Source of the DNA: Actinomycetota bacterium
GTDB taxonomy: Bacteria; Actinomycetota; UBA4738; HRBIN12
Assembly: GCA_036265325.1 (NCBI GenBank)
Contig: DATAPH010000060.1
Span: 13,993-77,992, forward strand
Direction: 5' to 3'
Length of the DNA stretch: 64,000 bases
Shown: piece by piece, positions 2,602 to 18,134 of the stretch
Numbering within the stretch: the first letter of the stretch is position 1
How the letters are laid out: the number at the start of each line of letters is the position of its first letter
Notes under the pieces: model-generated
Seen by the model: the letters and a program-made list of their open reading frames with translations, nothing else
Told to the model about the DNA's origin: nothing
Database searches by the model: none
Made by a program: the position numbers and the translations under genes

Positions 2602-3747
2602 CTACGCCGCCGGCACCTTCTTCTGCGGATCAATGAATGGGATCGCGGCCGTCGTTCCCGTGCGCGAGCCGTCGTCGGTCTCGACATCGAGTCGGTTCCC
2701 CGGCTCGGCGAGACCGATCGGCACCCAGACGTACCCGATGTTCTTTTCCAGACGTGGAGAGTACGTCGCGTCGGTGACATGGCCGACGTGCTCGCCCCCC
2801 GAGAACGCCGGCCAGTGCTGCGTCGGCTGCTCGACCCGGGGACCATCGATCTCGATGCCGACGAGCTTCCGTGAGACGCCCTCGCGCCGGATCCGTTCGA
2901 GCGCCTCCTTGCCGATGTAGTCGGCGTCTTGCTGCTCGACCAATCGCTCGAGGCCGGTGACCTCGAACGGATTCGTCTCGAGCCCGAAGTCCGAGCCCCA
3001 GTCGAAGATGCCGGCTTCGATCCGGCGTGCGTCGGACGACGGCGTCACGCGGATGTTGTACGGCTTGCCGGCGTCGAGGATCCGTTCCCAGAGGTCGTCG
3101 CCCTTGCTCGGATCGCGCAGGTAGATCTCGTAGCCGACCACAGCCGTCCAGCCCGTGCGGCTGATGACGACGGGGATGCCGTCGAGGTCGGACTCGTCGC
3201 ACCAGTAGTACTTCATGTCGAGGACCCAGTCGCCGAAGAGGTCGCGCATGACGTCCTTCGCCTTCGGGCCCTGTACCTGGACCGGATAGACATCGGGATG
3301 ACCGACGTCGACGTCCATCCCGGAATTGACCGCGACGCCCATGGCGTACAGGCCGGCGTCCGAGTCGGCGAGCGCGAGCCACCACCGGTTCTCCTCGACG
3401 CGCAGCAGGACGGGGTCGTTCACGATGCCGCCGTCCTGCGCCGTGACGAGCATGTACTTGCCCTGCTTGACCGCGCACGTGGTGAGGTCGCGACAGGTCA
3501 GGAGGTTGGTGAAGGCGGTCGCGTCCGGGCCGGTGATCTCGACGATCCGTTCGACGCTCACGTCCCAGAGCGTGACGTCGTTGATGAGCGACCAGTACTC
3601 CTCCAGTGGATCGCCGTAGGTGTTGGGGTGGTACATGTGCTGATAGACGTCGTAGGCGGAGCATCCCGCGCGAAGCGTCGCCTCGAAGAACGGCGAGCGC
3701 CGGTACCACGGTCCGAAGTTGAGGGTGGTGCTGCTCGGCTGGGACAC
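2602..3747 (-). CDS. aminomethyltransferase family protein (GcvT/DmdA-like, folate-binding)
   Basis: Similar over its full length to glycine-cleavage T-protein-like enzymes (WYRRSPFFEATLRAG... architecture). GTG start (VSQPSS) is preceded by AGGAGG with 8-nt spacing. Confidence 0.8.
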   Translation of the reverse strand: MSQPSSTTLNFGPWYRRSPFFEATLRAGCSAYDVYQHMYHPNTYGDPLEEYWSLINDVTLWDVSVERIVEITGPDATAFTNLLTCRDLTTCAVKQGKYMLVTAQDGGIVNDPVLLRVEENRWWLALADSDAGLYAMGVAVNSGMDVDVGHPDVYPVQVQGPKAKDVMRDLFGDWVLDMKYYWCDESDLDGIPVVISRTGWTAVVGYEIYLRDPSKGDDLWERILDAGKPYNIRVTPSSDARRIEAGIFDWGSDFGLETNPFEVTGLERLVEQQDADYIGKEALERIRREGVSRKLVGIEIDGPRVEQPTQHWPAFSGGEHVGHVTDATYSPRLEKNIGYVWVPIGLAEPGNRLDVETDDGSRTGTTAAIPFIDPQKKVPAA

Positions 3748-3884
3748 GACAGGTCGACCTCCTGTGTGGGTGGAAGGGTCTCGCGATGCTAGCGGCAGGC
3801 GGGCGCCGGCAGGTATCGCGGCGTCGACCGCTCGGCGTTGTATCGCCTGTTGCGCGGTGGGACATCGAGCGGGCGAGGCGCCAC

Positions 3885-3975
3885 GCAGAGTTGCGTCAAC
3901 CGCTTGACGACCGAAGTGGCGCAATGCGTTGACGCCTGATCGCGGGCGATGAACCGTCAAGACGTTGCGCGACTT
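3885..3975. promoter_or_regulatory. cluster of TTGACG / CGTCAA inverted-repeat motifs upstream of the aminomethyltransferase-like gene
   Basis: Direct reading shows ttgcgtcaaccgcttgacgacc, gcgcaatgcgttgacgcc and ccgtcaagacgttgcgcgac. The core hexamer TTGACG/CGTCAA occurs 5 times within about 90 bp, partly as palindromes. Confidence 0.3.
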
Positions 3976-4088: not shown

Positions 4089-5306
4089 CTAGACCGCCGG
4101 CCCCGAGATCAGCTGGACCGCCGCCGTGTGCTGCCCGGTCTGGTCTACCCACGTGATCTGGGCCGTCTCGCCGGGCACGTGCGCGTGCAGGGGCGGTCCG
4201 AGCGTGTTCGGCGACGTCACCGTGTGGCCGTCTACGCCCGTGATCACCGCGGGCACGGTCATGCCGGCCTGGGCCGCGGGGCCGTTCGGCTCCAAGCCCA
4301 CGACCAGCGCGCCCGACTGCACGCCGAGGTTCGCGGCGGCCGTCGGGTCGGCCTCGATCGCCTTGACGCCGACGCCGAGGTAGCCACGCTCGCCCATCAG
4401 GACGGTTCCGCCACCGCCGGCCTGGATCTGGTTGACCACGTCGAGCGCCGTCGTGATCGGGATCGCGAACCCAACGCTCTGCTGCGACGCCGAGGTTGTC
4501 TGGGTGTCGGTGCCGGCGGTGATCATGCCGATCACCTGACCGTTGGCGTTGATGAGGCCGCCGCCCGAGTCGCCCGGCTGGATGTGCGCGTTGGTCTGGA
4601 TCATGCCGGTGAGCCGCTCCGACGTGCCGTCGGGATCGTTCGCCGTGATGCTCCGGTTGAGACCCGTCACATCGCCGTTCGCGACGCTCGGGCTGCCGCC
4701 ACGGCCGAGCGCGTTGCCGACTCCGGCCACGTTCTCGCCGACCGACACCGACGACGAATCGCCGGGACTGATCGTCGCGAGTCCGGATGCGTTCTGCAGT
4801 TGGATCACCGCGACATCGTGTGCCGGATCCACGCCGACCACCGTCGCCGTGTAGGACGACGCGCCGGGCACCCGGACCTGGATCTTCCATGCGCCCTTCA
4901 CGACGTGGTTGTTGGTCAGCACCTCGCCGTTGGACGTGAGGACCATGCCGGTGCCGGCGCCCATCGGGGTCAGCTGGCTCGTCGGCGCGCCGATCTCCTT
5001 ACCGAACGTCGTGACGTCCACGATGCCGGTCGCGGTGCCCGTCACCGGCGCTCCGGTGTTCGAGCCGTTCGACATCGAGATCGCGGTGACCGCGCCGACG
5101 ACGAGCGTGCCGACGAGCGCGAGCGCGACGAGAAGCGGTACCCACTTGGAGGGCCGCTTCTTCGGTGCGGGCTGATCGGGCCGGGGAGCCCAGCCGACCG
5201 GGGAGGGTGCGGTCGGCTGGTTCCATCCCGGAGGCGCCGGCATGCCATGGAGGGCGCCGGGCCAGTGGTTCTGGGTCTCGTCGGGCGGGTTCATCAGGTC
5301 GGACAC
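4089..5306 (-). CDS. HtrA/DegP-family trypsin-like serine protease with C-terminal PDZ domain, N-terminal membrane anchor
   Basis: HVV...D...GDSGGGL catalytic triad context; one TM segment (LLVALALVGTLVVGAV); PDZ-like C-terminus. Start set at GTG (VSDLMNPP) with GAGGAG 8 nt upstream; an ATG 12 nt further downstream is also possible. Confidence 0.85.
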   Translation of the reverse strand: MSDLMNPPDETQNHWPGALHGMPAPPGWNQPTAPSPVGWAPRPDQPAPKKRPSKWVPLLVALALVGTLVVGAVTAISMSNGSNTGAPVTGTATGIVDVTTFGKEIGAPTSQLTPMGAGTGMVLTSNGEVLTNNHVVKGAWKIQVRVPGASSYTATVVGVDPAHDVAVIQLQNASGLATISPGDSSSVSVGENVAGVGNALGRGGSPSVANGDVTGLNRSITANDPDGTSERLTGMIQTNAHIQPGDSGGGLINANGQVIGMITAGTDTQTTSASQQSVGFAIPITTALDVVNQIQAGGGGTVLMGERGYLGVGVKAIEADPTAAANLGVQSGALVVGLEPNGPAAQAGMTVPAVITGVDGHTVTSPNTLGPPLHAHVPGETAQITWVDQTGQHTAAVQLISGPAV

Positions 5307-5484
5307 GTCATCGGCTCCTCGATCGTTCAACACCACTGATTCGGTTGACGTTCCCCGCAGGCTCGCAGTCACGCCTGGGAGTTCCCTGTGGAAACGGCTC
5401 GAGGTGTGTCGGAACACACCTCATTGACCGGTGGGACACCTCCCGCGTAGCGTCCGACCTGGCATTTTTCGAGGGGAGGACCGC

Positions 5485-5934
5485 ATGGCAGATCCGCCGG
5501 TCTACACCGTCAGTATCGACGCTCCGCCGGACAGGGTGTGGCCGCTCGTCGCCGATCTGAGCCGCCAGGGCGAATGGTCGCCGAAGCCGTACCGCGTCGA
5601 GTGGCAGTCCGGGGCACACAACGCCGTCGGAAGCACGTTCCGGTCGATCGGCTGGCTGCCGCAGGAAAGCGAGCACGTGATGGAGGGCGTGGTCACGGTC
5701 AACGAGCCGATGAAGATCTTCGAAGTGACCACCCACGACGACAAAGAGGAGTGGACCAACACATACGAGCTCACGCCGACGGGCTCCGGGACGACGGTCA
5801 CGAAGACGGTCATCTGGCCGCCGCTGAGCGGCGTCAAGGCGTTCGGACGGTCCGCCGTGTTCGCGGTCTACGTCAACGGCGCGATGCGCAAAGGCCTTTC
5901 GATGTTGAAGCAGAAGGCCGAAGCTGGCGCGTAA
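5485..5934 (+). CDS. SRPBCC (START/Bet v1-like, polyketide cyclase/dehydrase-type) family protein
   Basis: ATG of MADPPVYTV is preceded by GGGGAGGA. Small soluble protein with the pattern of the lipid-binding SRPBCC fold. Confidence 0.7.
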   Translation: MADPPVYTVSIDAPPDRVWPLVADLSRQGEWSPKPYRVEWQSGAHNAVGSTFRSIGWLPQESEHVMEGVVTVNEPMKIFEVTTHDDKEEWTNTYELTPTGSGTTVTKTVIWPPLSGVKAFGRSAVFAVYVNGAMRKGLSMLKQKAEAGA

Positions 5935-6102
5935 CCTCGTACCTATGTCGCGCAACTGTGTCGCGATAGAGATTAGGCCGAGGAACCTTGCGAAACTCGC
6001 CCTTGCGGGTGAGTCTCCTCGCTCGGTCCCTCGGCCCGATCTTATCTCTCGCTCCGACAGCGCTCCGTGAGGCGCGCGAACCGGGTTCAAGAGATGAAAG
6101 GT

Positions 6103-6283
6103 GGTCCCAGGCAACTCCACGACCGGCTTGGTTTCCTCGCGGTACCTCCGCTTTGGGGATTCCCAGATACCCCGCAAGCACAGGCAGTTCGCTTTCCCAC
6201 CCGTACTCACAGGTACTCCGAGTCGCCTTACGGCATCAGCCCTGCTCGGTTCCCTGCTTCGATCTGTTCGGCCGCCTGGGACC
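6103..6283. ncRNA. candidate structured small RNA (about 180 nt) inside a 0.5-kb low-GC non-coding gap; strand undetermined
   Basis: A perfect 10-bp long-range inverted repeat ggtcccaggc (6103-6112) / gcctgggacc (6274-6283) encloses 161 nt. No ORF has consistent coding signal across 5935..6428. GC is about 58% against about 70% for the window. Confidence 0.2.
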
Positions 6284-6428
6284 GATGCGAACGATAGGCG
6301 ACGCATACGACGTCTGCAAATGGCGTTGACCTGCACATATGTCCGATGACCTGCGCATCCTTCGACACCAGAAAGAGTGACAAGACGACGGACGTCATGT
6401 TCGCGCTCGACGTCGGTACGCTCGTCGT

Positions 6429-7025
6429 ATGTGTGCACACGCACGTGCGGACGGGTTCAACGATGCGTATCGCGACACGCCGCCCTGGGACATCTCACGT
6501 CCGCAACCCGGGTTCCGTGCGCTTGCCGAGGACGGCGCGTTGCACGGACGCGTGCTCGATGTCGGATGTGGAACGGGTGAGCACGCGTTGCTCGCCGCGT
6601 CGCTCGGGTTGGATGCGACCGGGATCGACGGCGCGCCGATCGCGATCGAGAAGGCCGAGGCGAAGGCGCGCGAGCGCGGCATCGATGCTCGGTTCCTGGT
6701 CGGCGATGTGCTTGAGCTCGCGCAGACGGGCGAGCAGTGGGACACGGTGCTCGACTGCGGCGTGTTCCACGTGTTCGACGACGACGACCGCCCCGTGTAC
6801 GTCGAGAACCTCGCCGCGGTGATCCCTGCGGGCGGTCGGTACTTCATGCTGTGCTTCAGCGATCGGCAGCCGGGCGCCGCGGGACCGCGCCGCGTGTCGC
6901 AGGACGAGATCCGTTCCTCGTTCGCGGACGGCTGGCGCGTGGACTCGATCGAGGCGTCGGTCATCGAGACGAACTGGCAGGAGCGAAGCGCCCGGGCCTG
7001 GCTCGCGACGATCACCCGCATGTGA
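6429..7025 (+). CDS. class I SAM-dependent methyltransferase
   Basis: VLDVGCGTGEHAL is the glycine-rich SAM-binding motif I; 198 aa. Confidence 0.75.
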   Translation: MCAHARADGFNDAYRDTPPWDISRPQPGFRALAEDGALHGRVLDVGCGTGEHALLAASLGLDATGIDGAPIAIEKAEAKARERGIDARFLVGDVLELAQTGEQWDTVLDCGVFHVFDDDDRPVYVENLAAVIPAGGRYFMLCFSDRQPGAAGPRRVSQDEIRSSFADGWRVDSIEASVIETNWQERSARAWLATITRM

Positions 7026-7131: not shown

Positions 7132-8634
7132 GTGCTGCAGTCGTCCCGTCTTGCGCCCGCTCGCGTCGGTGCGTGGCTCGCCGTCGCCGTCCTCGTTGTG
7201 GCGGCCCTGGCCGGGGTCGCCGCGCCGGCCCGGGCCGCCTCGGGGCTGACGGCGTTCACGGTCGACAGCGAGGCCGGCGACTCCATCGCCGCAGGGCAGA
7301 GCGTCACCTTCACGTCGTCGAACGCGACGATCACGGCGACCGGCGATGACACGGCGCTGACGATGAACGTGACGGACGGCACGGATCACTTCGCCGCGGA
7401 TCTGGCGGCGCCGACGGGCGGCGCCTTGACGGCCGGGACCTACACGACGACCCGATCCGGCGACGCCTCGAACGCCGGGCTTGATGTGTCCGGCGACGGC
7501 CGCTCGTGCAGTTCTTCAACGGGCACGATGACCGTGCACGAGATCGCGGTGGACGGATCCAACGCGCTCGCGACGCTCGCGGTCACCTACGAGCAGCACT
7601 GCGACGGCGCGACGCCGGCGTTGTTCGGCGAGCTTCGGTTCAACTCGGCGGTCGACTACAAGGCCGTTTCGGCGTCACCGGCGAGCATCGACTTCGGCAC
7701 GCAACCGCGTCACCCGTCGGCGCCTAACCCCATCACGATCACGAACACCGGAAGCACGGCGGTCACGTTCGGCGCCGCGTCGCTCAAGGGAACGGCGCGC
7801 GCCGACTACTCGATCGACTCGGACGACTGCTCCGGAACCTCGCCGGCGCCGACCGAGACGTGCGCGGTCGCGATCGTGTTCGACCCGAGCTCGGGCGCGA
7901 GCCGCCCGGCGCGCGTCGAGCTGCCGGTGGACACGGCGCGCGGCGTGGTCGTCATCCCGCTGACCGGCAAGGGCCAGAAACACACCACGTCCGTCTCGAT
8001 CAAGGTGTCGAACTCGCGCGTCAACTTCAACGGCTCGGTCACGGTCACGGCGCACCTCGAAGATCACCGCAAGGTGCACAACAGGACGCTGTTCATCCTC
8101 GAGAAGCCGTACGGGGGCGCCAGCAAGCCCATCAAGTCCGCGTTGGTCGACCGGCACGGGAACCTCCAGGCCAAGGTGCGGCTGCAGAAGCGGGCCTCGT
8201 TCTCGGCGCAGTTCGGTGGTGACGTCGATTGGAAGGCCGCGACGAGCCGCTCACTGACCGTGCACGTGTTCGCGTCGATCAAGGGTCGGATGATCCGCAA
8301 CTACAGCCGTTCCGGCTCCTACGCGCTGTACCACTACAAGGGCTCGTGCACGACGTCGGCCCACACGCGCTGCCCGGAAGAGGCCGTCAAGGTAAGCCCG
8401 AATCACCAGGGCGACACGATCACCGCCACCCTCCAGGCGTTCACCGCAGGGAAGTGGCACACCATGGCGAGCATCAGCGGTCCGCTGTCGGCCAACAGCA
8501 CCGCGATCGTCATCACGTACTACACCGGGCCGGGCGTGATCGGCGTCAACCTCCGCTCGCACATCCGGTTCAGCGGTGACGACGAGAACCTCGCGCGAAC
8601 GTCGTCGTGGGCGTACTTCCGCGTGACCAAGTAG
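7132..8634 (+). CDS. secreted protein with choice-of-anchor-D/HYDIN-like Ig-fold domain; function unknown
   Basis: GTG start with GGAGG 5 nt upstream. Signal peptide (AWLAVAVLVVAALAGVAAPARAAS). Central segment SIDFGTQP...ITITNTGSTAVTF...CSGTSP...TCAVAIVF matches the beta-sandwich pattern of choice-of-anchor D domains. Confidence 0.7.
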   Translation: MLQSSRLAPARVGAWLAVAVLVVAALAGVAAPARAASGLTAFTVDSEAGDSIAAGQSVTFTSSNATITATGDDTALTMNVTDGTDHFAADLAAPTGGALTAGTYTTTRSGDASNAGLDVSGDGRSCSSSTGTMTVHEIAVDGSNALATLAVTYEQHCDGATPALFGELRFNSAVDYKAVSASPASIDFGTQPRHPSAPNPITITNTGSTAVTFGAASLKGTARADYSIDSDDCSGTSPAPTETCAVAIVFDPSSGASRPARVELPVDTARGVVVIPLTGKGQKHTTSVSIKVSNSRVNFNGSVTVTAHLEDHRKVHNRTLFILEKPYGGASKPIKSALVDRHGNLQAKVRLQKRASFSAQFGGDVDWKAATSRSLTVHVFASIKGRMIRNYSRSGSYALYHYKGSCTTSAHTRCPEEAVKVSPNHQGDTITATLQAFTAGKWHTMASISGPLSANSTAIVITYYTGPGVIGVNLRSHIRFSGDDENLARTSSWAYFRVTK

Positions 8635-8643
8635 CGAGTTTCG

Positions 8644-9834
8644 TCAGTCGGGAAGCAACGGGACCTGGAGGCCGTCGCGGCGGCCGAGCAGCACGCCGCG
8701 GGTGAGGGACTTCGAGCCGAAGCGCTCCTGGACGTGGTCGAGCGTCGTGTCCATCGCCGCGGCCGGCGCTTTGCCGAACGGGAGCGCGAGCTGGATGGCG
8801 TCGTCGTTCGACAGGTTGCTGAACGTGATGCCGATCAGCGTGATACCGCGCTCCTCGATGATGGGGAGGGCGTCGTGGAGCAGCGAACGTCCCGCCGTGA
8901 GCAACGTCACGGTGTCGGTCGTCGACTCGTGCAGTGTGTGTGAGCGCGTCGCGCGCGTCAGGTCGTCGAATCGAAGCCTGAGCGTCACCGTGCGCGCGAC
9001 GCGGTGTGCCTTGCGCAGCCGGCGTGCGAGCCGGTCGACCAGCGCGATCAGATCGACCTCGAGCTGATCGGGCGGGCGTGCGCGGCGGCCGAGCGCGCGT
9101 TGCGTGCCGATCGAGTGGCGCCGTTTGCCCACCTCCACCGGGCGCGGATCTCGGTTGTGCGCGAGCGCGTGAAGGTGCCGGCCCGACGCGCGCCCGAGGA
9201 TCGCGATCAGCGCGTCTTCGTTCAGCTGCGCCACATCAGCGACGGTTGTGAGCGATCGTTCGCGCAGCTTCTTGGCGGTGACGTTGCCGACGCCCCAGAG
9301 GCGTTCGACCGGCAGTGGATGGAGGAAGCCGAGCTCGTCGTCGACCGGCACCACGAGCAAGCCGTCGGGCTTCGCGACACCGCTCGCCACTTTGGCCAAG
9401 AACTTCGTCCGCGCGACGCCGACCGTGACCGGGATGCCGACCCGCTCCCGGACCTGTGCACGGAGACGGACTGCGATCTCGGGCGGTATGCCGGAGATCC
9501 GCTTGAGCCCGCCCACGTCAAGGAACGCTTCGTCGATCGAAAGCCCTTCCACCAGCGGCGTCGTGTCGCGGAATACCTCGAACATGGCGTCGCTCGCGTC
9601 GCTGTACGCCTCCATCCGCGGGCGCACGACGATCGCCTGCGGGCACATGCGGCGCGCTTGCATCTCGCCCATCGGCGTGTAGACGCCGAAGGCCTTGGCC
9701 TCGTAGCTCGCGGCGAGCACCACCCCGCCGCCGACGATGACCGGCTTGCCGCGGAGCGAGGGGTCATCGCGCTGCTCGACAGACGCGTAGAAGGAGTCCG
9801 CATCGGCGTGCAGGATCGTGGCTTGCTCGCCCAC
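8644..9834 (-). CDS. dinB: DNA polymerase IV (Y-family translesion polymerase)
   Basis: ILHADADSFYASVEQ is the N-terminal catalytic motif of the DinB/UmuC family, with thumb and little-finger regions following; 396 aa; GTG start. Confidence 0.9.
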   Translation of the reverse strand: MGEQATILHADADSFYASVEQRDDPSLRGKPVIVGGGVVLAASYEAKAFGVYTPMGEMQARRMCPQAIVVRPRMEAYSDASDAMFEVFRDTTPLVEGLSIDEAFLDVGGLKRISGIPPEIAVRLRAQVRERVGIPVTVGVARTKFLAKVASGVAKPDGLLVVPVDDELGFLHPLPVERLWGVGNVTAKKLRERSLTTVADVAQLNEDALIAILGRASGRHLHALAHNRDPRPVEVGKRRHSIGTQRALGRRARPPDQLEVDLIALVDRLARRLRKAHRVARTVTLRLRFDDLTRATRSHTLHESTTDTVTLLTAGRSLLHDALPIIEERGITLIGITFSNLSNDDAIQLALPFGKAPAAAMDTTLDHVQERFGSKSLTRGVLLGRRDGLQVPLLPD

Positions 9835-10276: not shown

Positions 10277-10441
10277 CTATGCGATCTGGAAGAACAACAG
10301 CGCGCCGATGATGACGGTTGCCGCGGCGCCAATTAAGACGAGCAGCCGGCGCGTAACCGACGGCTTCCTCGTGTACAGGTACGTGACGATCCCCGCGGCG
10401 ATCAGCACCGCGCCCATCAGCGTGTCTTTGTTGAGCTTCAC
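10277..10441 (-). CDS. small hydrophobic (2-TM) protein, 54 aa, below ORF-track size cutoff
   Basis: My translation: VKLNKDTLMGAVLIAAGIVTYLYTRKPSVTRRLLVLIGAAATVIIGALLFFQIA*. GTG start is preceded by GGAGAGGGAG and codons are strongly GC3-rich. It ends 9 nt before the YjbR start. Confidence 0.45.
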   Translation of the reverse strand: MKLNKDTLMGAVLIAAGIVTYLYTRKPSVTRRLLVLIGAAATVIIGALLFFQIA

Positions 10442-10542
10442 AGGCTCCCTCTCCGCCTCGTGTGCACCGACTGTAATGCGCGTGGCCTGTTGGCACGAAT
10501 CCAGGCCGCGGCCGTATCCGCGCCCGGTGATACGGTCGGTCG

Positions 10543-11586
10543 ATGGAGTACAGAACGCTCGGCGGGACCGGCCTCAAGGTCAGCACGCACTGCCTCGGCA
10601 CCATGATGTTCGGGGAGTGGGGCAACAAAGACGTCGACGACTGCGTCGGTACGATCCGTGCGGCGATCGACGGCGGCATCAACTTCGTGGACACGGCCGA
10701 CGTCTACTCGGCCGGCGAGTCCGAGGAGATCGTCGGCAAGGCGCTGAGGGGCCGGCGCGACGAGGTCATCCTCGCGACAAAGGTCCACGGGCAGATGGGT
10801 CCGGGGCACAACGACGCCGGCAACTCGCGCGTGTGGATCGCCAAAGAGGTGGAGAACAGCCTCCGCCGCCTGGGAACCGATCACATCGACCTGTATCAGA
10901 TCCATCGCCCCGACGGGGACACCGACGTCGAAGAGACGCTCGGCGCACTGACCGATCTTCAGCGCCAGGGCAAGATCCGGTACTTCGGTTCGTCCACGTA
11001 TCCGGGTTGGCAGATGGTCGAGGCGCAATGGACGGCCGAGCAGCGTGGGCTGTCGCGGTTCCGGACGGAGCAGCCGCCGTACTCGATCTTCGTTCGGCAG
11101 ATCGAACACGACGTGCTGCCGGTCGCCGAGAAGTACGGGATGGGCGTGCTCGTGTGGAGCCCGCTCTGCCGTGGATGGCTCACCGGGCGCTACCGCCGCG
11201 ATGAGTGGGACGACTCGCCGGAGGCGCGCGCGACGCGCGGGCCGCAGCGGGCAGACTGGATGCGACCGATGTACGACCGCTCCCGCCCGGAGGTCCAGCA
11301 CAAGCTCGATCTCGTCGAGCAGTTGCTGACGATCGCCGACAAGGCGGGCATCACGCTGACCCACATGGCGATCGCGTTCACGCTCGCGCATCCCGCGGTC
11401 ACGTCGACGATCATCGGTCCGCGCACGCGCGAACAGCTCGACGACCTGTTGGGTGCGGCCGATGTGCGGCTCTACGACGGGACGCTGGACGCGATCGACG
11501 AGCTGGTGCCGCCCGGCACGCTCGTCGACGAAGAGGACCGCGGGTTCGATCCCTGGTGGTTCGAGCCCGAGGCGCGCAGACGCTGA
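10543..11586 (+). CDS. aldo/keto reductase
   Basis: GTMMFG, DTADVY and IDLYQIHRPD are canonical AKR motifs; 347 aa. Confidence 0.9.
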   Translation: MEYRTLGGTGLKVSTHCLGTMMFGEWGNKDVDDCVGTIRAAIDGGINFVDTADVYSAGESEEIVGKALRGRRDEVILATKVHGQMGPGHNDAGNSRVWIAKEVENSLRRLGTDHIDLYQIHRPDGDTDVEETLGALTDLQRQGKIRYFGSSTYPGWQMVEAQWTAEQRGLSRFRTEQPPYSIFVRQIEHDVLPVAEKYGMGVLVWSPLCRGWLTGRYRRDEWDDSPEARATRGPQRADWMRPMYDRSRPEVQHKLDLVEQLLTIADKAGITLTHMAIAFTLAHPAVTSTIIGPRTREQLDDLLGAADVRLYDGTLDAIDELVPPGTLVDEEDRGFDPWWFEPEARRR

Positions 11587-11616
11587 GCGCCTGCAGACGC
11601 GAAGGAGGGAAGCGCG

Positions 11617-11976
11617 ATGAACTTCAACGGCATCTTGATCGGCTCGGAGGAGCCCGCCCGCCTCGTCACCTACTACACGAAGCTGTTCGGCGATTCGACT
11701 TGGGACGAGTCCGGATACACCGGCTGGCAGCTGGGCAACGGCGGCTTCACGGTCGGTCCCCACGACCAGGTCAAGGGCGACAACGAGCAGCCGGGCCGGA
11801 TCATCTGGAACATCGAGAGCGCCGACGTGCGCGGGGACTTCGATCGGTTCAAGGCTGCCGGCGCAACCGTCGTTCAGGAGCCCTACAACCCCGGCGACGA
11901 GGCCGACGGCGACATGAGCATCGCGACGTTCGCCGACCCGGACGGCAACTACTTCCAACTCGTCTCGCCGATGTAA
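11617..11976 (+). CDS. VOC (glyoxalase/bleomycin resistance/dioxygenase) family protein
   Basis: 119 aa, pattern of paired beta-alpha-beta-beta-beta modules. RBS GAAGGAGGGAAG precedes the ATG. Confidence 0.8.
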   Translation: MNFNGILIGSEEPARLVTYYTKLFGDSTWDESGYTGWQLGNGGFTVGPHDQVKGDNEQPGRIIWNIESADVRGDFDRFKAAGATVVQEPYNPGDEADGDMSIATFADPDGNYFQLVSPM

Positions 11977-11983
11977 GCGGGCC

Positions 11984-12610
11984 GTGCTGACCGACCCGGA
12001 GCTCGACGCGCTCGAGCACGCGGTCGCAAGCATCCCGATAGCCACCTTCGAGTTCGTCGCGGACGACTACGTCATGGCGCTGTTCGACACCGTGCTCGAC
12101 TACCAGAACCAGGCCGCCGCGATCCAGAAGGCGGAAGACCACTTCCGCGAGGAGCACTTCGACGAGATCCGCACGCTGGAGGACCTCGAGGCGGTGCTCG
12201 AGCGGTTCCCCGAGGAGCGCGAGGGCAACGAGGAGCTCGCGCAGTACCTCTGGGGGAACCACCATTGGCGCCGCGCGCAGGAACTCCGCGGCCTGGTGGG
12301 CTACTTCCGTGAGCGGAACGTGACCACGTTGCGCCGGCTGCGGACGTGGGCGGCGAAGTCGCAACAGGACGACTTCGTCGGGCGCATCAAGGGCCTCGGG
12401 CCGGCGGTGTATCGGTCACTTGCGATGCGGATGGGCGTCGATACGGTGAAGCCCGACGTCCACGTCCTTCGGTTCGTGTCGGCGGCGATCGGGAGGAACG
12501 CGTCACAGGCCGAAGCGGTCGACGGACTGACGGAAGTCGCGATGAGGCTCGGCGTCCCGGCCCGTGACGTCGACTGGAGCGTCCTCGAGTATCAGAAGAG
12601 CAGCGCCTAG
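11984..12610 (+). CDS. hypothetical protein with helix-hairpin-helix-like motif (IKGLGPAV)
   Basis: GC3-rich ORF of 208 aa. Its stop overlaps the convergent kinase stop in a CTAG tetranucleotide. Confidence 0.6.
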   Translation: MLTDPELDALEHAVASIPIATFEFVADDYVMALFDTVLDYQNQAAAIQKAEDHFREEHFDEIRTLEDLEAVLERFPEEREGNEELAQYLWGNHHWRRAQELRGLVGYFRERNVTTLRRLRTWAAKSQQDDFVGRIKGLGPAVYRSLAMRMGVDTVKPDVHVLRFVSAAIGRNASQAEAVDGLTEVAMRLGVPARDVDWSVLEYQKSSA

Positions 12611-14664
12611 CTCACCGGGACGGAGCCCGAGACCGAGGTGCCGGCGCCCGGCGTGCTGGCGATGTGCAAGGTCCCGCCGATCGCGTCCAACCGGTCCGCC
12701 ATGCCCTGCAGGCCCGTGCCGTAGGTGGTCGCGGCCGCGTCGAACCCGGACCCGTCGTCGGTGACCGTGAACCGGAGGTCGCCGTTGTCCTGCCGGATCG
12801 TGACCTGCGCGTTCGATGCGCCGGCGTACTTCGCGACGTTGTTCAGCGCCTCGAGCGTGCAGAAGTAGACGGCCGCTTCGACCGGCTGCTCGTAGCGGCC
12901 GATGCCGTCTGTCTCGACCGAGACGGGCACGACCGACTTCCGCGCTTGCGCCTCCAATGCGGCGCTGAGCCCCTTGTCGGCAAGCAGCGGCGGGTAGATG
13001 CCGCGGGCGAGGTCGCGGAGGTCTTCGAGGGCTTCCGTCGCGCGGGCCTGGAGCTGCTCGGCCATGTCGGCGACCTTCGACGGATCGCTCGTCCCGACCC
13101 GCGCGAGCAACCCCGCTTGCACGTTCAGGGCCACCAATTGCTGCTGTACCCCGTCGTGGATGTTCCGCTCGAGCTTGCGGCGTTCCTCGTCCTGGGCGTT
13201 GACGAGCCGTTGCCGCGACGCCCGGAGGTCTTCGATCAGGCCGACGTTCCGCAGGACCAAGCCGGCCTGAGACGCGACGTCCGCGAGGAGCTTCTCGTCC
13301 GCCGACGTCAGCACCTGACCGGGGGCCTTGGTCACCGACAACGCGCCGAGCAGTTCGCCTTGGTAGCGAACGGGCGCCGTCGCGGTCGCCCCGGGGACGA
13401 CCACGTCGTTCGTGATCGGCACACGCGACACGGACGCCGTTGGCCACGAACCGGCGGTCCGGAGTTCCGAGCCAACCTTCACCCACACGTCGGCGCCCCT
13501 CGCGCCCATGCCTTCGGCAAGGATGTGCGCCGTTCGCGGCAGCACGTCGTCGACCGCGTATGTGCCCGCGACGCGTTCCGCGAAGTCGGAAAGCACCTCG
13601 TAGGGCGTCGCTCGCTTGCCGTAGACGAGCCGATTCGCGAAACGCCGGCTTCGTTCGCGGACGGGCTGGAACGCGATCGCGATCACCGCGGCGGCCACGG
13701 CCGCGAGGAACTTGCTGCTCTGTCCGCCGACCATCGTGCCGACGCCGACGACGATCGCCGCGTAGATCAACGTGATGAACACCGCGAGCGTGCCGTAGAC
13801 GACCGCACGGTTGATCACGACGTCGATCTCGTACAGCCGGTACTTCAAGACGGCGATCGCGATCGTGGAGAACAAGAAGATGAACGCCAGGCTCTGGAAC
13901 ACCGAGATCCACACCGGCGTGACCTCGCCCTGCGTGAAGTTGATCAGGAACGACAGCACGACGAGCGCGGCGCCGGTCGCGAACCACTTGATCTGCAGCC
14001 GTTCGTCCCCGGTTGAGTAGATCGCCCTCACGAGGACGGCGACGAGCGACGCGATCAGCGACGCGATCAGCGGTACCAAGAACACGAGAAGGAACAGGGC
14101 GAGGGCCAGTGCACCGATACCCCCCGGACCTTGCGCCGCGTACGGGTCGTGCCAGCTCGTCGTCGCGAAGAAGACACCGGAGCACGTCGCGACGATCGTC
14201 GACACGACGAGGAGCCACCAGACCGGACGCCAGCGCGGCGTTCGGATCTCTCCGGTCGGGAACAGCAAGAAGAGGAACGTGAGCATGTAGATCGGGATGA
14301 AGTTGGTGCTCGACGCGAGCCAGGCGGCGAAGTTCCCGCCGGGCCAGGAACCGGGGTCGACCACGAGCGCGTGTACCGCGTACGCGCCGAAGAACCCGCT
14401 GATCCCGAGCGTGACTCCGGCGGCCATGAAGAACCACCCGATGCGGTTGTCGGAGCGCTTGGCGGCGACCACCGTGCCGATGGAGATCCCCACGATGTTG
14501 GCGATGACCCCGAGCGCGTTCGCTTGGCTCCAGTCGTACGAGCTGGCGGCAGACGGGACGGCCGCACCTCGGTCGACGAACATCAGCACCAGGCCGGCGG
14601 TCATCAGCGCGATGGCGCTGCCGCCGAGCCAGACGGCGACCCGGGCCGGGTTCCGGAGCCTCAT
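12607..14664 (-). CDS. polytopic membrane sensor histidine kinase (HisKA_3/NarL-type, with GAF-like domain and HATPase_c)
   Basis: Eight to ten TM helices at the N-terminus; H-box ERRKLERNIHDGVQQQL (HisKA_3); G-box GTGLQGMADR. No response regulator on either side. Confidence 0.85.
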   Translation of the reverse strand: MRLRNPARVAVWLGGSAIALMTAGLVLMFVDRGAAVPSAASSYDWSQANALGVIANIVGISIGTVVAAKRSDNRIGWFFMAAGVTLGISGFFGAYAVHALVVDPGSWPGGNFAAWLASSTNFIPIYMLTFLFLLFPTGEIRTPRWRPVWWLLVVSTIVATCSGVFFATTSWHDPYAAQGPGGIGALALALFLLVFLVPLIASLIASLVAVLVRAIYSTGDERLQIKWFATGAALVVLSFLINFTQGEVTPVWISVFQSLAFIFLFSTIAIAVLKYRLYEIDVVINRAVVYGTLAVFITLIYAAIVVGVGTMVGGQSSKFLAAVAAAVIAIAFQPVRERSRRFANRLVYGKRATPYEVLSDFAERVAGTYAVDDVLPRTAHILAEGMGARGADVWVKVGSELRTAGSWPTASVSRVPITNDVVVPGATATAPVRYQGELLGALSVTKAPGQVLTSADEKLLADVASQAGLVLRNVGLIEDLRASRQRLVNAQDEERRKLERNIHDGVQQQLVALNVQAGLLARVGTSDPSKVADMAEQLQARATEALEDLRDLARGIYPPLLADKGLSAALEAQARKSVVPVSVETDGIGRYEQPVEAAVYFCTLEALNNVAKYAGASNAQVTIRQDNGDLRFTVTDDGSGFDAAATTYGTGLQGMADRLDAIGGTLHIASTPGAGTSVSGSVPVS

Positions 14665-14778
14665 GTTCGTCCAGATGATGCCGCCGAGAGCGGGCCGGGG
14701 GAAGGGGTGCAGGCAGGCCGACCGGACGGGGAGAGGACACCCATGGATCGCCTGGGTGCCCGGTGGCGCGTGAGGGGT

Positions 14779-16194
14779 CTAGCCGAAGTTGTACGTGCGC
14801 ACGTCGAACGTGCGGCCCAGCTCGTCGGTCGGGGTCACTGTCACCGTCGAGCCGTTCACGGTTACCAGCAGGAAGTGGAACACGCGGTCGATCGTCGTCG
14901 GGCGGGCGAGCGACCCGCACGAGCTTCCGTGCGTGCTCGACGAGTACGACCAACCGAGGGCCGCGGCGATCGGTGCGCCGCAGCGGGTTGCAGGCTCGAG
15001 CTTGGCGCCGCCGCCGCCTGTCACGTAGCTGACGGGGAGGCCAGTCGGCGTGGACCGGGCGTACGTGTGCGCGTGGCCGTTGAAGATGAGGTCGACGCCG
15101 TTGTCGCCGAGCAGCCCTTCCAGGTGATCCTCGCCCGCCAGGTACGTGTCGGATGCCTCCGTGCTGTTCGGTGAGTGCGGCGGGAAATGGAAGAAGGCGA
15201 ACTTGAGGCCGCCGGGATGCGCGGCGAGATCCTGGGCGAGCCACTTGTACTCGGCGCTGGTCGTCGTCCAGTGGTTGTCGTAGTCGTTCTTGTAGATGTC
15301 TGCCGTGCCGACGTTGGAGTTTCCCCAGGCCGCGTCGAGCACGTAGAACCGCGCGGTGCCGGCGTCGAACGCGTACCACGCGCTCGGGTAGCTCGCCGAC
15401 CGCGTTCCGTTCGTGCAGCAGTACGTCTGCATGGCGTATGTGCCGCCCGAGGTCGATGCCGCTCGCGATTCCGGCCAGGTGGTCAGCGCGGTCGAGTTCA
15501 AGCCGTGGTTGCCCAGGGCGTTGAACATCGGGATCGTGTCGCCGGGAACGGTCCAATAGGAAGGCCCGAACACGGTGCTCACGCTGGCGCCGGTCTGGGT
15601 GAGGTCTCCGTAGTTGGTCTGCGATCCGCTCTGATAGGCGATGTCACCCGTGGTGACGGCGAAGCGGGCGCCGCTGGACGCGATGCGCGCCATCACGTTG
15701 GCCTGGTCGGTGTTGAGGGCCGCCGTGTCCTGCCAGCCCCAGTCGCCGATGACCGCGAAGGAGTACGACGCCGTCGATCCGGCAGCGACCTGCGACCGGA
15801 AGACCGGCGAGGCGTCGGTGCCGAGGAGGTCGATGGTGCTGCTCCGAACCCGGTAGCAGTACGCCGCATCCGACGTCAGCCCCGACAACGTCGCTTTCCA
15901 CTGATACTCGGCGGTCGAGCCGACGGTGATCGCAGTCTTTGTCGCCGAGACCGTATGATCCGCGCAGCTTCCGCCCGATCGACCGTAGGTCACCGCGCCC
16001 GTCTGGATGCCCGTCGTCGTGGCCCAGTTGACGGTGACGCCGTTGTTGACCAGGTCGGTGAGGTACGGATATCGCCGCAGCGAGCTCGACGTCGATGCCG
16101 ACGCCACCGGTGCGGCCAGCGTCGTCCCGACGAGGGCGAGAGCCGCTGCAGCGACGGTGATGAGGACGCGCTTGGTCCTCGCTGTGCCGTGCAT
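14779..16194 (-). CDS. secreted metallophosphoesterase / purple acid phosphatase-like protein
   Basis: Signal peptide (LITVAAAALALVGTTLAAPVASAS); GDWG, GDIAY, GNHG and GHAHTY are calcineurin-like metal-binding motifs. Trimmed from the 830-aa track ORF to MHGTART (471 aa). Confidence 0.8.
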   Translation of the reverse strand: MHGTARTKRVLITVAAAALALVGTTLAAPVASASTSSSLRRYPYLTDLVNNGVTVNWATTTGIQTGAVTYGRSGGSCADHTVSATKTAITVGSTAEYQWKATLSGLTSDAAYCYRVRSSTIDLLGTDASPVFRSQVAAGSTASYSFAVIGDWGWQDTAALNTDQANVMARIASSGARFAVTTGDIAYQSGSQTNYGDLTQTGASVSTVFGPSYWTVPGDTIPMFNALGNHGLNSTALTTWPESRAASTSGGTYAMQTYCCTNGTRSASYPSAWYAFDAGTARFYVLDAAWGNSNVGTADIYKNDYDNHWTTTSAEYKWLAQDLAAHPGGLKFAFFHFPPHSPNSTEASDTYLAGEDHLEGLLGDNGVDLIFNGHAHTYARSTPTGLPVSYVTGGGGAKLEPATRCGAPIAAALGWSYSSSTHGSSCGSLARPTTIDRVFHFLLVTVNGSTVTVTPTDELGRTFDVRTYNFG

Positions 16195-16260
16195 GACGCC
16201 GCGTCGGTACCCCGATCCGCAGTGATCCACACGCCCCGGCGCCGGATTAGCCTGTCGGAC

Positions 16261-17268
16261 GTGCATCCCGCGCTCGAACGGCTCGATCCGGCCGACCGCA
16301 CGCTGGTCCGCCGCCAGGCGATGCCGGCGTTCACGCCCCCGATGCTCGCGACCCTGACCAGGCACGTCTTCTCGGACCCGGCGTGGGTTTACGAGCCGAA
16401 GCTTGACGGCCAGCGGTCGCTGCTGTGGCGCCGCGGCAAGAACATCCGTCTGCTGACTCGCAACGAGAAGGATCGGACCTCCCACTATCCGGACCTGACG
16501 GCGGGGATCCTCAGCGAGGAGACGCCACCCCTGATCGCCGACGGCGAGATCGTTGCGTTCGACGGCGAGGTGACCTCGTTCTCGAAGCTCCAGGGCCGGA
16601 TGCAGAACGCGCGGCCGAGCGGGGCGAACGTGGCGTGGGTGCCGGTCTACTTCTATCTGTTCGACCTGATCTGGTTCGACGGCAACGACCTCTCGGCGTT
16701 GCCGCTGGTTGCGCGGAAGGCGGTCCTGCGGGAGGCGCTCACCTTCGCCGACCCCATCCGGTTCTCGGAGCACCTGGAAGAGGAGGGCGAGGCTGCCTTC
16801 CGCGCCGCCTGCGAGCAGCGGTGGGAGGGATTGGTCGCCAAGCGCGGAGCGTCGCCGTACACGCACGCGCGGTCCAAGGATTGGCTGAAGTTCAAGTGCA
16901 GCAACGAGCAGGAGTTCATCGTGATCGGCTGGACCGATCCGCGCGGGTCGCGCGAGGGCTTGGGCGCGCTGCTCGTCGGGTACCACGAGGGCGGCGAGCT
17001 GCGGTTCGGCGGAAAGGTCGGAACCGGGTTCAACGAGCGCGAGCTCGACCGCCTGAGCGCCAAGCTTCGCCGGTTGGAACGGCAGACGTCGCCGCTCGCT
17101 GACACGAAGGGGATCGGGATGAAGGGCGTGCACTGGGTGCGACCGGAGCTGATCGCCGAGGTCGGGTTCGCCGAATGGACGCCGGACGGCAAGCTCCGGC
17201 ACCCGCGGTACCTCGGCCTGCGCGACGACAAGTCGCCCGACCAGATCGTGCGAGAGCGGCCGCGGTGA
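16261..17268 (+). CDS. ligC: ATP-dependent DNA ligase, LigC/LigD-ligase-domain type (stand-alone)
   Basis: Adenylation-domain motifs EPKLDGQR (motif I, with the lysine nucleophile), FDGE, LEGLVAK and DWLKFK. GTG at 16261 is preferred; ATG at 16321 is possible. Stop overlaps the next start (GTGA). Confidence 0.85.
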   Translation: MHPALERLDPADRTLVRRQAMPAFTPPMLATLTRHVFSDPAWVYEPKLDGQRSLLWRRGKNIRLLTRNEKDRTSHYPDLTAGILSEETPPLIADGEIVAFDGEVTSFSKLQGRMQNARPSGANVAWVPVYFYLFDLIWFDGNDLSALPLVARKAVLREALTFADPIRFSEHLEEEGEAAFRAACEQRWEGLVAKRGASPYTHARSKDWLKFKCSNEQEFIVIGWTDPRGSREGLGALLVGYHEGGELRFGGKVGTGFNERELDRLSAKLRRLERQTSPLADTKGIGMKGVHWVRPELIAEVGFAEWTPDGKLRHPRYLGLRDDKSPDQIVRERPR

Positions 17269-18134
17269 CACCCGACGTCAAGATCACGAAGCCCGACAAG
17301 CTGCTGTGGCCTGCGCTCGAGATCACGAAGCAGCGATACGTCGATTACCTGAACGCGGTGAGCGACCGGATGCTGCCGTGGTTGCGCGACCGGCCGCTGT
17401 CACTCGTTCGTGCACCGGACGGTGTGACGGGGGAGCAGTACTACCAGAAGGACACGCCCAAGTACGCGCCGTCGTGGATCAAGACCGTCACGATCCCGGC
17501 GGTGCGGCGCGATGTCGCGTACACGGTGTGCAACGACGCAGCGACGCTCTCGTGGCTCGGCAATCAGGCGGCCCTCGAGTTCCACCCCGCGCCGGTCCGA
17601 CGCGACAACGTCGACAAGCCGGACGTGTTGACGATCGACATCGATCCGCCCGACGACGCGTTCGACGCTGCGGTGGAGGTCGCGTTGCTCGTGCTCGAGG
17701 TGACCGACGATCTCGGCATGCGGACGTTGGTGAAGACGACCGGTGGGAAGGGCCTGCACATCGTCGCGCCTATCCAGCGGCGGGTGACGGCGGACGAGCT
17801 TCGGTTCGCCGCGAACCGGTTGACCGAGATCGTGCAAGGCCGTCGTCCCGATCTTGTGACCGCCGAGTTCCGCAAGGCGGATCGCGGCGGCAAGGTCATG
17901 CTGGACCCGTCACGCAACTCGACCGGTGCAACCGTGGTGGCGCCCTACTCGCCGCGCGCCCGCGACGAGGCGACGGTGTCGTTCCCCGTCGTGCCTGATG
18001 AACTGAAGAAGACGGACCCGAGCACGTTCACGGTCGCGACGGTGGCCGACCTACTTGGGAGACGGGGTCCAAAGGCTTGGCGTGAGGCGGAGCGCGAGTC
18101 GCCGCAGCGGATCCCTCAAGCGCTCCTTCCATAG
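17265..18134 (+). CDS. non-homologous end joining / BER primase-polymerase (LigD POL-domain-like, stand-alone)
   Basis: ITKPDKLLWP start region; HVRTTGGKGLHI-like TTGGKGLHIV motif; archaeo-eukaryotic primase fold signature; GTG start inside GTGA overlap with ligC. Confidence 0.85.
   Translation: MTPDVKITKPDKLLWPALEITKQRYVDYLNAVSDRMLPWLRDRPLSLVRAPDGVTGEQYYQKDTPKYAPSWIKTVTIPAVRRDVAYTVCNDAATLSWLGNQAALEFHPAPVRRDNVDKPDVLTIDIDPPDDAFDAAVEVALLVLEVTDDLGMRTLVKTTGGKGLHIVAPIQRRVTADELRFAANRLTEIVQGRRPDLVTAEFRKADRGGKVMLDPSRNSTGATVVAPYSPRARDEATVSFPVVPDELKKTDPSTFTVATVADLLGRRGPKAWREAERESPQRIPQALLP

Follow-up and report, generated by a model that had tools for sequence, protein, structure and literature searches.

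Does the 494-nt non-coding gap at positions 5935-6428 of a 64,000-nt stretch of an Actinomycetota genome (contig DATAPH010000060.1; the whole stretch is hereafter the window) carry an RNA gene and, if so, on which strand, between which limits and with what possible function? The gap extends from an SRPBCC/polyketide-cyclase-like gene (plus strand, ending at 5934) to a gene for a class-I S-adenosylmethionine (SAM) methyltransferase (plus strand, beginning at 6429), and these are the limits given in an earlier reading of the sequence alone. That sequence-only reading proposed a 181-nt RNA on the plus strand, closed by a perfect 10-bp helix. Our analysis supports another arrangement: we consider, with a probability of about 0.85, that a self-contained gene occupies the minus strand from 6384 to 5965 and specifies a structured non-coding RNA about 320 nt long. 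As judged by comparative analysis, this RNA is a new family of a familiar kind, namely the stand-alone structured small RNA (sRNA) gene.

The inverted repeat that drew attention to the gap is present, since ggtcccaggc (6103-6112) and gcctgggacc (6274-6283) are perfectly complementary over 10 nt. By itself this repeat is not beyond chance expectation: a perfect 10-bp inverted repeat was found in 106 of 1000 shuffled versions of the gap (10.6%), and the window contains 172 such pairs with arms at most 400 nt apart, or about 1.3 per 494 nt. The feature is genuine, though the reason given for it was statistically unsound. The GC content of the gap, put at about 58%, is 60.3%, against 68.2% for the window. 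No open reading frame (ORF) in the gap acts as coding, as had been stated, and the 378-aa minus-strand ORF at 5308-6444 is an Arg-rich sequence of antisense type.

Conservation, structure and strand of the core

Soil metagenome contigs (L001-L006) carry near-identical versions of the gap. A genome scan anchored on the methyltransferase gave 80 loci, and a homologue of the gap was found in the closest one only, an Actinomycetota metagenome-assembled genome (MAG; L007) whose methyltransferase protein is 90% identical to that of the window. Between the window and this MAG, identity reaches 97.4% in a rod-like segment (6100-6290) and 93% in a hairpin segment (5970-6042), compared with 84-85% in the flanking genes, where about 28% of third codon positions are changed, and 11-83% in the remainder of the gap. 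The rod shows 5 changes where about 50 would be expected at the third-position rate, and on this comparison it is under strong selection.

More distant relatives were reached in two ways. The six-frame translations of the region were joined into a pseudo-protein and searched against a collection of 5.8 billion proteins. The single match, P0001, was called as a histidine kinase gene, whose reading frame runs along the antisense strand of an RNA homologue; at its locus (L087) the rod is about 88% identical and the gene context is unrelated, making it the first homologue in a different neighbourhood. Furthermore, invariant blocks were defined from three sequences, and a 20-mer of the longest block was scanned exactly in metagenome contigs, matching 90 metagenome stretches. 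About 90 loci (93 with the loci from the other searches) can be aligned to the RNA along as much as 410 nt, yielding 62 distinct full-length sequences and 53 distinct cores, with a pairwise core identity of 93% on average and 84% at minimum across the sample. Four pattern matches (L094, L134, L137 and L173) were chance matches and were excluded from the family. An additional copy of the RNA lies on a 539-kb contig (L178). As far as these sequences tell, the family has been found so far only in uncultured soil Actinomycetota. A covariance model built for it, R1, finds one copy in the window, on the minus strand with 243 bits, and gave more than one match in none of the loci to which it was applied.

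Folding of the 181-nt segment 6103-6283 separated the two strands. The minus strand folds at -86.9 kcal/mol (z = -4.8), a value equalled by no shuffled sequence, while the plus strand folds at -65.6 kcal/mol (z = -2.1), slightly better than its shuffles; for the entire gap the z values are -4.85 and -3.24, respectively. On the minus strand, G·U pairs lengthen the 10-bp helix to 13 bp. The further complementary segments (ggccg/cggtc) that the sequence-only reading placed just inside the repeat are not complementary on the plus strand.

The RNAalifold consensus of the 53 cores contains 55 pairs in nine helices, and 99.9% of the 2915 pair cells are standard pairs. Double changes occur in three core pairs and amount to 29 cells, against 7.7 ± 2.1 in shuffled alignments. 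They comprise one pair of helix P1 (C-G to G-C in 4 sequences), one pair of P4 (A-U to G-C in 7 sequences) and pair 93/123 of P5 (G-C in 34 sequences, A-U in 18). Wobble-only variation is seen in 13 further core pairs; four of the P1 pairs and seven of those in P5 vary in this way, and 3 cells are unpaired in P1 and none is broken in P5. When the 3' partners are shifted by 1-3 columns, pairing falls to 29-53%. Most pairs of P2, P3 and the small hairpins are invariant, and the alignment is neutral on them. One segment, GGC-loop-GCC-GUAA-GGC, can form two mutually exclusive hairpins, and its freely varying loop (UAGA, UGAU, CAAG, UAAC and others) favours the first of them.

The strand is indicated by about 12 pairs that are G·U in all or most sequences and that become A·C mismatches when read on the plus strand. 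Likewise, R1 scores are 240-254 bits in the sense orientation and 7-11 bits in antisense. As judged from the alignment, the secondary structure of the core is conserved, with compensatory change on one strand, the minus strand. Thus a structured RNA in the gap is upheld, the region is conserved in relatives with compensatory pairs, and the 10-bp helix is a genuine closing helix, kept in 53 of the 53 distinct cores; the plus-strand placement is not, with wobble pairs, compensatory changes, fold energy and the conserved promoter described below all indicating the minus strand.

A predicted promoter and the predicted limits of the transcript

The features of the proposed gene are collected in Table 1. 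A promoter is recognized by conserved hexamers at a fixed spacing with unconstrained sequence between them. We read the sequence upstream of the core as a promoter of sigma-A type because conserved hexamers at fixed spacing flank unconstrained sequence. The spacer between the hexamers is 17 nt in the window and 17-18 nt across homologues, and its sequence varies freely; already between the window and the closest MAG the hexamers are conserved and the spacer is varied. Among the 62 distinct homologues the -35 hexamer is TTGACC in 36 and TTGACG in 8 (together 44/62), with TTTGCA in 12, and in all 62 the -10 hexamer ends 6-8 nt, a variable stretch, before GGTCCC. The conserved RNA begins with GGUCCCAGGC at 6283, and its predicted start is at about 6286-6283. 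The RNA is thus predicted to have its own promoter directly upstream, with a conserved -35/-10 pair in 62/62 sequences. This promoter would drive the RNA alone, on the strand opposite to its neighbours.

Table 1. Positions of the predicted RNA gene and its elements, in 5' to 3' order along the minus strand
Feature	Positions	Strand	Description
Upstream box CTTGTCACTCTTTCT	6370-6384	-	about 85-100 nt 5' of the RNA start; candidate regulator-binding site
Direct repeat 1, GCAGGTCA	6347-6354	-	conserved across homologues; candidate transcription-factor site
CATATG palindrome	6336-6341		between the two GCAGGTCA repeats
Direct repeat 2, GCAGGTCA	6327-6334	-	20 nt from repeat 1, 7 nt upstream of the -35 hexamer
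-35 hexamer TTGCAG	6314-6319	-	mostly TTGACC or TTGACG in homologues
-10 hexamer TATCGT (TAnnnT)	6291-6296	-	TAnnnT in 62/62 homologues
Core domain	6100-6286	-	181-nt rod (6283-6103), then CAC and a short pyrimidine run
P1, 5' strand GGUCCCAGGCGGC	6271-6283	-	contains repeat arm 6274-6283
Helices P1-P4			RNAalifold consensus: P1, 13 bp; P2, GAUCG/CGGUC; P3, short; P4, CUCGGA/UCUGGG
Small hairpins			among them two with GNRA-type loops: GCC-GUAA-GGC and CC-GCGA/GUGA-GG
Apical hairpin P5	6171-6213	-	16-17 bp stem with many G·U pairs, 9-nt loop GAAAGCGAA
Helix P5			16 bp in the consensus; 17 bp in the single-sequence fold of the window RNA
P1, 3' strand GUUGCCUGGGACC	6103-6115	-	contains repeat arm 6103-6112
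Hairpin 2	6043-6094	-	sequence variable, pairing conserved
Hairpin 3	5969-6041	-	long, branched; conserved GAGCGAGGAGACUCAC and GCGAGUUUCGC; probable 3' end or terminator

Upstream of the hexamers lie two direct repeats of GCAGGTCA and, further out, the CTTGTCACTCTTTCT box, which is nearly invariant in the alignment of 62 sequences and at which conservation ends, with none further upstream. Direct repeats 20 nt apart that abut a -35 hexamer are a typical layout of activator sites, and binding of a regulator to the GCAGGTCA repeats may set the expression of the RNA. A single occurrence of the pattern GCAGGTCA-N(9-15)-GCWGGTC was found in the window, where 0.01 would be expected, and the CTTGTCACTCTTTCT box likewise has one copy. 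Additional upstream boxes elsewhere in the window might have pointed to a regulon, but a search for them gave none. In 60 loci the CTTGTCACTCTTTCT box is present once per RNA locus. In L087 it is found twice, tandemly duplicated at 4474-4488 and 4506-4520, 32 nt apart, and this homologue is the only one in which the duplication is seen.

A further likeness was noted at this box. Its DNA sequence GTCACTCTTTCT (6370-6384, minus strand) resembles the RNA segment CCAC(C)UUUC that follows P1 (6091-6102, minus strand), and both resemble the 3' end of actinobacterial 16S rRNA, TCACCTCCTTTCT. The likeness may be fortuitous, may reflect a protein-binding motif common to both, or may be left over from the origin of the module.

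On the 3' side the RNA is not the closed 181-nt unit that had been described, as two further conserved or covarying hairpins come after the core, with compensatory types in 8 of their 27 pairs overall. The stem of hairpin 2 reads CAUCUC/GAGAUG or CGUGCC/GGCACG according to the clade, with compensatory types in 3 of 5 consensus basal pairs. Hairpin 2 has no U-tract, and a search for an alternative pairing with the core gave no clear one. Hairpin 3, which is 93% identical in the closest MAG, is present in most but not all homologues, and its outer and inner stems show compensatory types. In the window clade this GC-rich hairpin is followed by U-rich sequence (UAAUCUCUAU, GUUCUUUG, UUUCUUUUCC), in contrast to the other clades, and a terminator scan calls none. 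The transcript very probably extends past the 181-nt element, at least as a precursor, as these conserved hairpins suggest.

The gap is also bracketed by a perfect 11-nt inverted repeat, GTGTCGCGATA at 5958-5968 and TATCGCGACAC at 6468-6478, the second arm being inside the methyltransferase gene. Given the frequency of 10-bp repeats here, it is probably due to chance. Its left arm falls within a small hairpin (5942-5968) adjoining the SRPBCC stop codon.

Several points weigh against a stand-alone RNA gene with these limits. The sampled family is shallow, and its collection by an exact 20-mer inflates the apparent conservation. Covariation in the core is thin, with three pairs showing double changes. 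The start and the end of the RNA are predictions from sequence, and simple promoter and terminator scans call nothing in the gap. The consensus promoter scan is silent because the -10 hexamers match TATAAT at only 3-4 positions.

Proposed stand-alone status and possible function

The genes beside the RNA differ from clade to clade. In the window its neighbours are genes for GGDEF-EAL, GCV_T, HtrA-like protease, SRPBCC, methyltransferase and DinB proteins and for a 500-aa protein devoid of Pfam domains, and the order methyltransferase, RNA, SRPBCC, HtrA-like protease is kept in the closest clade only. In other clades the neighbours are MFS transporters, an amine oxidase, adenylate-cyclase proteins, a histidine kinase and a LuxR-type regulator (the latter identified by inspection of its C-terminal sequence). 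The methyltransferase gene lies upstream of the RNA and is divergent from it, and the next downstream gene, SRPBCC, is convergent. As judged by crude ORF and third-codon-position GC (GC3) calls, with Pfam backing for some, the first downstream ORF is convergent in the window clade and in L107, L146/L093, L109, L167, L158 and L087; a same-strand downstream gene, for an MFS transporter, was found in L131 only. In addition, the 79 other methyltransferase loci (L008-L086) gave no blastn or nhmmer match to the gap, and 48 of them scanned with the covariance model gave none either. Given this change of neighbours and a downstream gene that is mostly convergent, we regard the RNA as a stand-alone one and not as a methyltransferase leader. 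Nor is it arranged as a cis-regulatory leader, which would lie in the 5' untranslated region (UTR) on the same strand as the regulated gene. It would act in trans, not on the adjoining gene.

A GCV_T-family gene recurs near the RNA in several clades in varying orientation, with 87% amino acid identity in L107, where it is inverted, and 52% in L146. This recurrence suggests one rearranged chromosomal region, as far as gene order can tell.

Comparison with described RNAs gave no relative. No Rfam 15 family matched the gap, the core or the whole window at the gathering threshold, and searches at E<=10 of 5850-6500, of 6080-6300 and of a homologue (L176) returned noise only and no 6S RNA; the same applies to the riboswitch, aptamer and ribozyme classes in Rfam. 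The noise consisted of microRNA models and of Transposase-2, whose 20 bits compare with a gathering score of 42.7 and which did not recur in L176. Local similarities to 5S rRNA, 23S rRNA (GUACCGUGAGG), conserved regions of RNase P, signal recognition particle (SRP) RNA and Y RNA were short, purine-rich matches that no Rfam model supported, and they were set aside.

The sequence-only reading had regarded the plus strand as a 6S-like RNA, or as a riboswitch or sRNA for the downstream methyltransferase. The gap does lie directly upstream of that plus-strand gene, and the 10-bp closing helix forms in the plus-strand fold too. However, the plus strand folds weakly (z = -2.1) and has A·C mismatches in place of about 12 conserved G·U pairs, the covariance model scores 7-11 bits in antisense against about 243 in sense, and the conserved promoter faces the opposite way. 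Furthermore, the RNA is divergent from the methyltransferase gene, has other neighbours in other clades, where it is present without that gene, and is missing from the 79 other methyltransferase loci; no riboswitch or 6S family of Rfam is matched, the core failing to match 6S even at E<=10, and the predicted middle of the core is branched, with conserved hairpins, and not a plain bubble. A plus-strand RNA is therefore very improbable. Equally improbable is an element acting as DNA, be it a miniature mobile element, a site of integration or a series of regulator sites serving neighbouring genes. Its presence in differing gene neighbourhoods would suit such an element, as would the similar pyrimidine motifs at both ends of the promoter and core module (GTCACTCTTTCT upstream and CCAC(C)TTTC after P1), and proteins probably bind the conserved upstream boxes as DNA. 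Against such an element, there is a single copy per locus and per 64-kb window, no match in plasmid, phage or viral collections (blastn of the RNA for plasmids and phages, a scan with two conserved blocks for viral contigs), no terminal inverted repeat and no transposase nearby. Moreover, the GCV_T recurrence fits local rearrangement and not transposition, and strand-specific wobble and compensatory changes would be unexpected. We give the least credence to the idea that the gap is occupied by a decayed pseudogene or by a small protein gene missed in annotation. In each of the six frames the region is mostly open, and occasional gene calls fall here (partial ones on L005 and L006, and the read-through P0001), but the region is more conserved than the adjoining coding DNA and shows no excess of third-position change, its variable alignment columns being spread 19/21/15 over the codon positions with no 3-periodicity. 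The six-frame query matched one protein in 5.8 billion, the antisense histidine kinase read-through, and the translations are rich in Arg, Gly and Pro, as is typical of non-coding frames of high-GC DNA.

The main alternative as to function, which we consider unlikely, is a ligand-sensing or catalytic RNA, whose core would be an aptamer- or ribozyme-like fold that controls or uses the 3' hairpins, much as in EutX and Rli55, two sRNAs under riboswitch control. The long invariant unpaired stretches, the two GNRA-type loops (GUAA; GCGA/GUGA), the small hairpin whose loop varies freely on an invariant stem, the multi-helix junction and a 3' domain built of separate conserved modules would all agree with it. 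On the other hand, no riboswitch or ribozyme family is matched, no recurring metabolic neighbour hints at a ligand, and hairpin 2 has neither a U-tract nor a clear alternative pairing with the core. More generally, the unpaired invariant stretches together with the GNRA-type loops suggest that the RNA adopts a specific tertiary structure, binds a protein or does both.

Returning to the stand-alone minus-strand RNA, it may bind and titrate an abundant conserved protein, most probably RNA polymerase. 6S RNA, Ms1 and CoRP act by binding RNA polymerase in other bacteria. A protein-titrating RNA of this type would be the single likeliest mechanism, as we weigh the possibilities, but it is a guess, with the chances well below even. 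We arrive at it because of the size of the RNA, its paired ends, the poorly paired conserved centre, the stand-alone organization and a phylum with lineage-specific RNAs of this kind. It is opposed by the failure of 6S models to match, by the dissimilarity to Streptomyces coelicolor Ms1 and the absence of Ms1-type neighbours, and by the predicted centre, which is branched with conserved hairpins instead of an open bubble.

The resemblance to 6S RNA (RF00013) is one of topology. Both are stand-alone genes with a core of about 180-190 nt whose ends are paired in a long closing stem, and with a long apical stem; in the centroid fold of our RNA, a 21/21-nt centre is unpaired between the closing stem and a 23-bp apical stem. 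As modelled, such a rod, with its closing stem, poorly paired centre and apical stem, is compatible with a 6S/Ms1-like role. In contrast to 6S RNA, the consensus fold has a 5-bp helix and small conserved hairpins in the middle of the rod, the pairs of which are invariant, about 140 nt of additional 3' hairpins are present, and no ygfA-type neighbour is found among the annotated flanking genes.

Recognizable 6S RNA is largely absent from Actinobacteria, in which Ms1 and CoRP are lineage-specific substitutes that were not found by homology or structure searches; RNA polymerase-binding RNAs of 230-520 nt, restricted to a lineage and missed by Rfam-type searches, are documented in this group (PMC9130861, PMC11077062). 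Like Ms1 and CoRP (PMC4191392, PMC9130861, PMC11077062), our RNA has an Actinomycetota host, a restricted lineage, its own promoter, an intergenic region of more than 300 nt and a comparable length (S. coelicolor Ms1 has 227 nt and CoRP 516 nt). In sequence no relation is apparent. With the one Ms1 sequence compared, that of S. coelicolor (227 nt, PMC9130861 supplement), blastn gave a 25-nt match of 76% identity with E=0.028 in a tiny search space, and nhmmer with the family profile gave no match at E<=10. Ms1 has a HAD-IB hydrolase/phosphoserine phosphatase gene on one side and an oxidoreductase gene on the other as conserved neighbours (PMC9130861), and neither the hydrolase nor an adjacent oxidoreductase was found among the annotated flanking genes of our RNA. 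CoRP lies between tRNA genes, unlike the RNA of the window, which is also far more conserved in sequence than has been reported for Ms1. The conserved core strings are absent from the supplement text of the Ms1 and CoRP papers and do not occur in the literature searched, and a literature search on novel structured RNA motifs in Actinobacteria metagenomes yielded nothing relevant.

Orphan non-coding RNAs with complex folds include the raiA motif RNA, ROOL and HEARO. The present RNA is like them in being mid-sized, with several helices, GNRA loops and highly conserved unpaired nucleotides, in having come to light through its conservation, in being lineage-restricted and in having a function not evident from its neighbours. 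It differs in its conserved promoter with upstream direct repeats and its branched 3' hairpin, and none of the three is among the Rfam matches. One may tentatively suppose, as a speculation that could well fail, that it is the first known representative of a new class of RNAs with complex folds in uncultured soil Actinomycetota, either polymerase- or ribosome-binding, or ligand-binding or catalytic, with a dedicated promoter under a regulator that recognizes GCAGGTCA.

If transcribed as predicted, the RNA would constitute a new, strongly constrained family in abundant uncultured soil Actinomycetota, with no relative in Rfam 15. Should it bind RNA polymerase, it would add another lineage-specific 6S substitute beside Ms1 and CoRP in Actinobacteria; should it be an aptamer or a ribozyme, it would be an orphan fold with unusually many invariant nucleotides and a good target for structure determination. 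Covariance model R1, the proposed boundaries and the promoter with its candidate regulator sites make the question directly testable.

Other observations on the neighbouring genes

Proteins with adenylate/guanylate-cyclase domains are encoded directly upstream of the RNA and divergent from it in L087 and L107, and an MFS protein binding cyclic nucleotide monophosphates (cNMP) is encoded directly upstream in L109. These neighbours may be due to chance in the cyclase-rich Actinomycetota.

The exact SRPBCC protein has no record in the protein collection. An alternative-frame query from the GCV_T gene (2630-3865; gene 2602-3960) returned four gene calls that are themselves in the alternative frame. 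They are ENA long-read ORF calls P0002-P0005, free of Pfam domains, on contigs L178-L181, where they represent an alternative frame of genes for GCV_T-family aminomethyltransferases (window 2602-3960, minus strand). The fragmented appearance of genes on these contigs suggests frameshift errors. On L178 the RNA is found in the same synteny as in the window, and the three more distant loci have no RNA within 8 kb.

The 500-aa ORF at 7132-8634 (plus strand), which has no Pfam domain, lies beside the methyltransferase gene in the window, L001, L178 and about 17 metagenome loci. It is absent from the closest MAG, in which a DinB-like gene follows directly, an arrangement that amounts to an insertion or deletion (indel) of a conserved hypothetical gene. 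In the window the DinB-family polymerase is at 8644-9834. Two minus-strand ORFs, 10438-12045 (535 aa) and 12503-15556 (1017 aa), have no Pfam match at E<=1e-5 and may be either wrong frames in high-GC DNA or real genes of a kind not yet described. Finally, an ATP-dependent DNA ligase gene (15175-17268, plus strand) overlaps an ORF with a LigD primase-polymerase domain (17175-18134, plus strand) in a different frame, a pair of the type that serves repair by non-homologous end joining (NHEJ).

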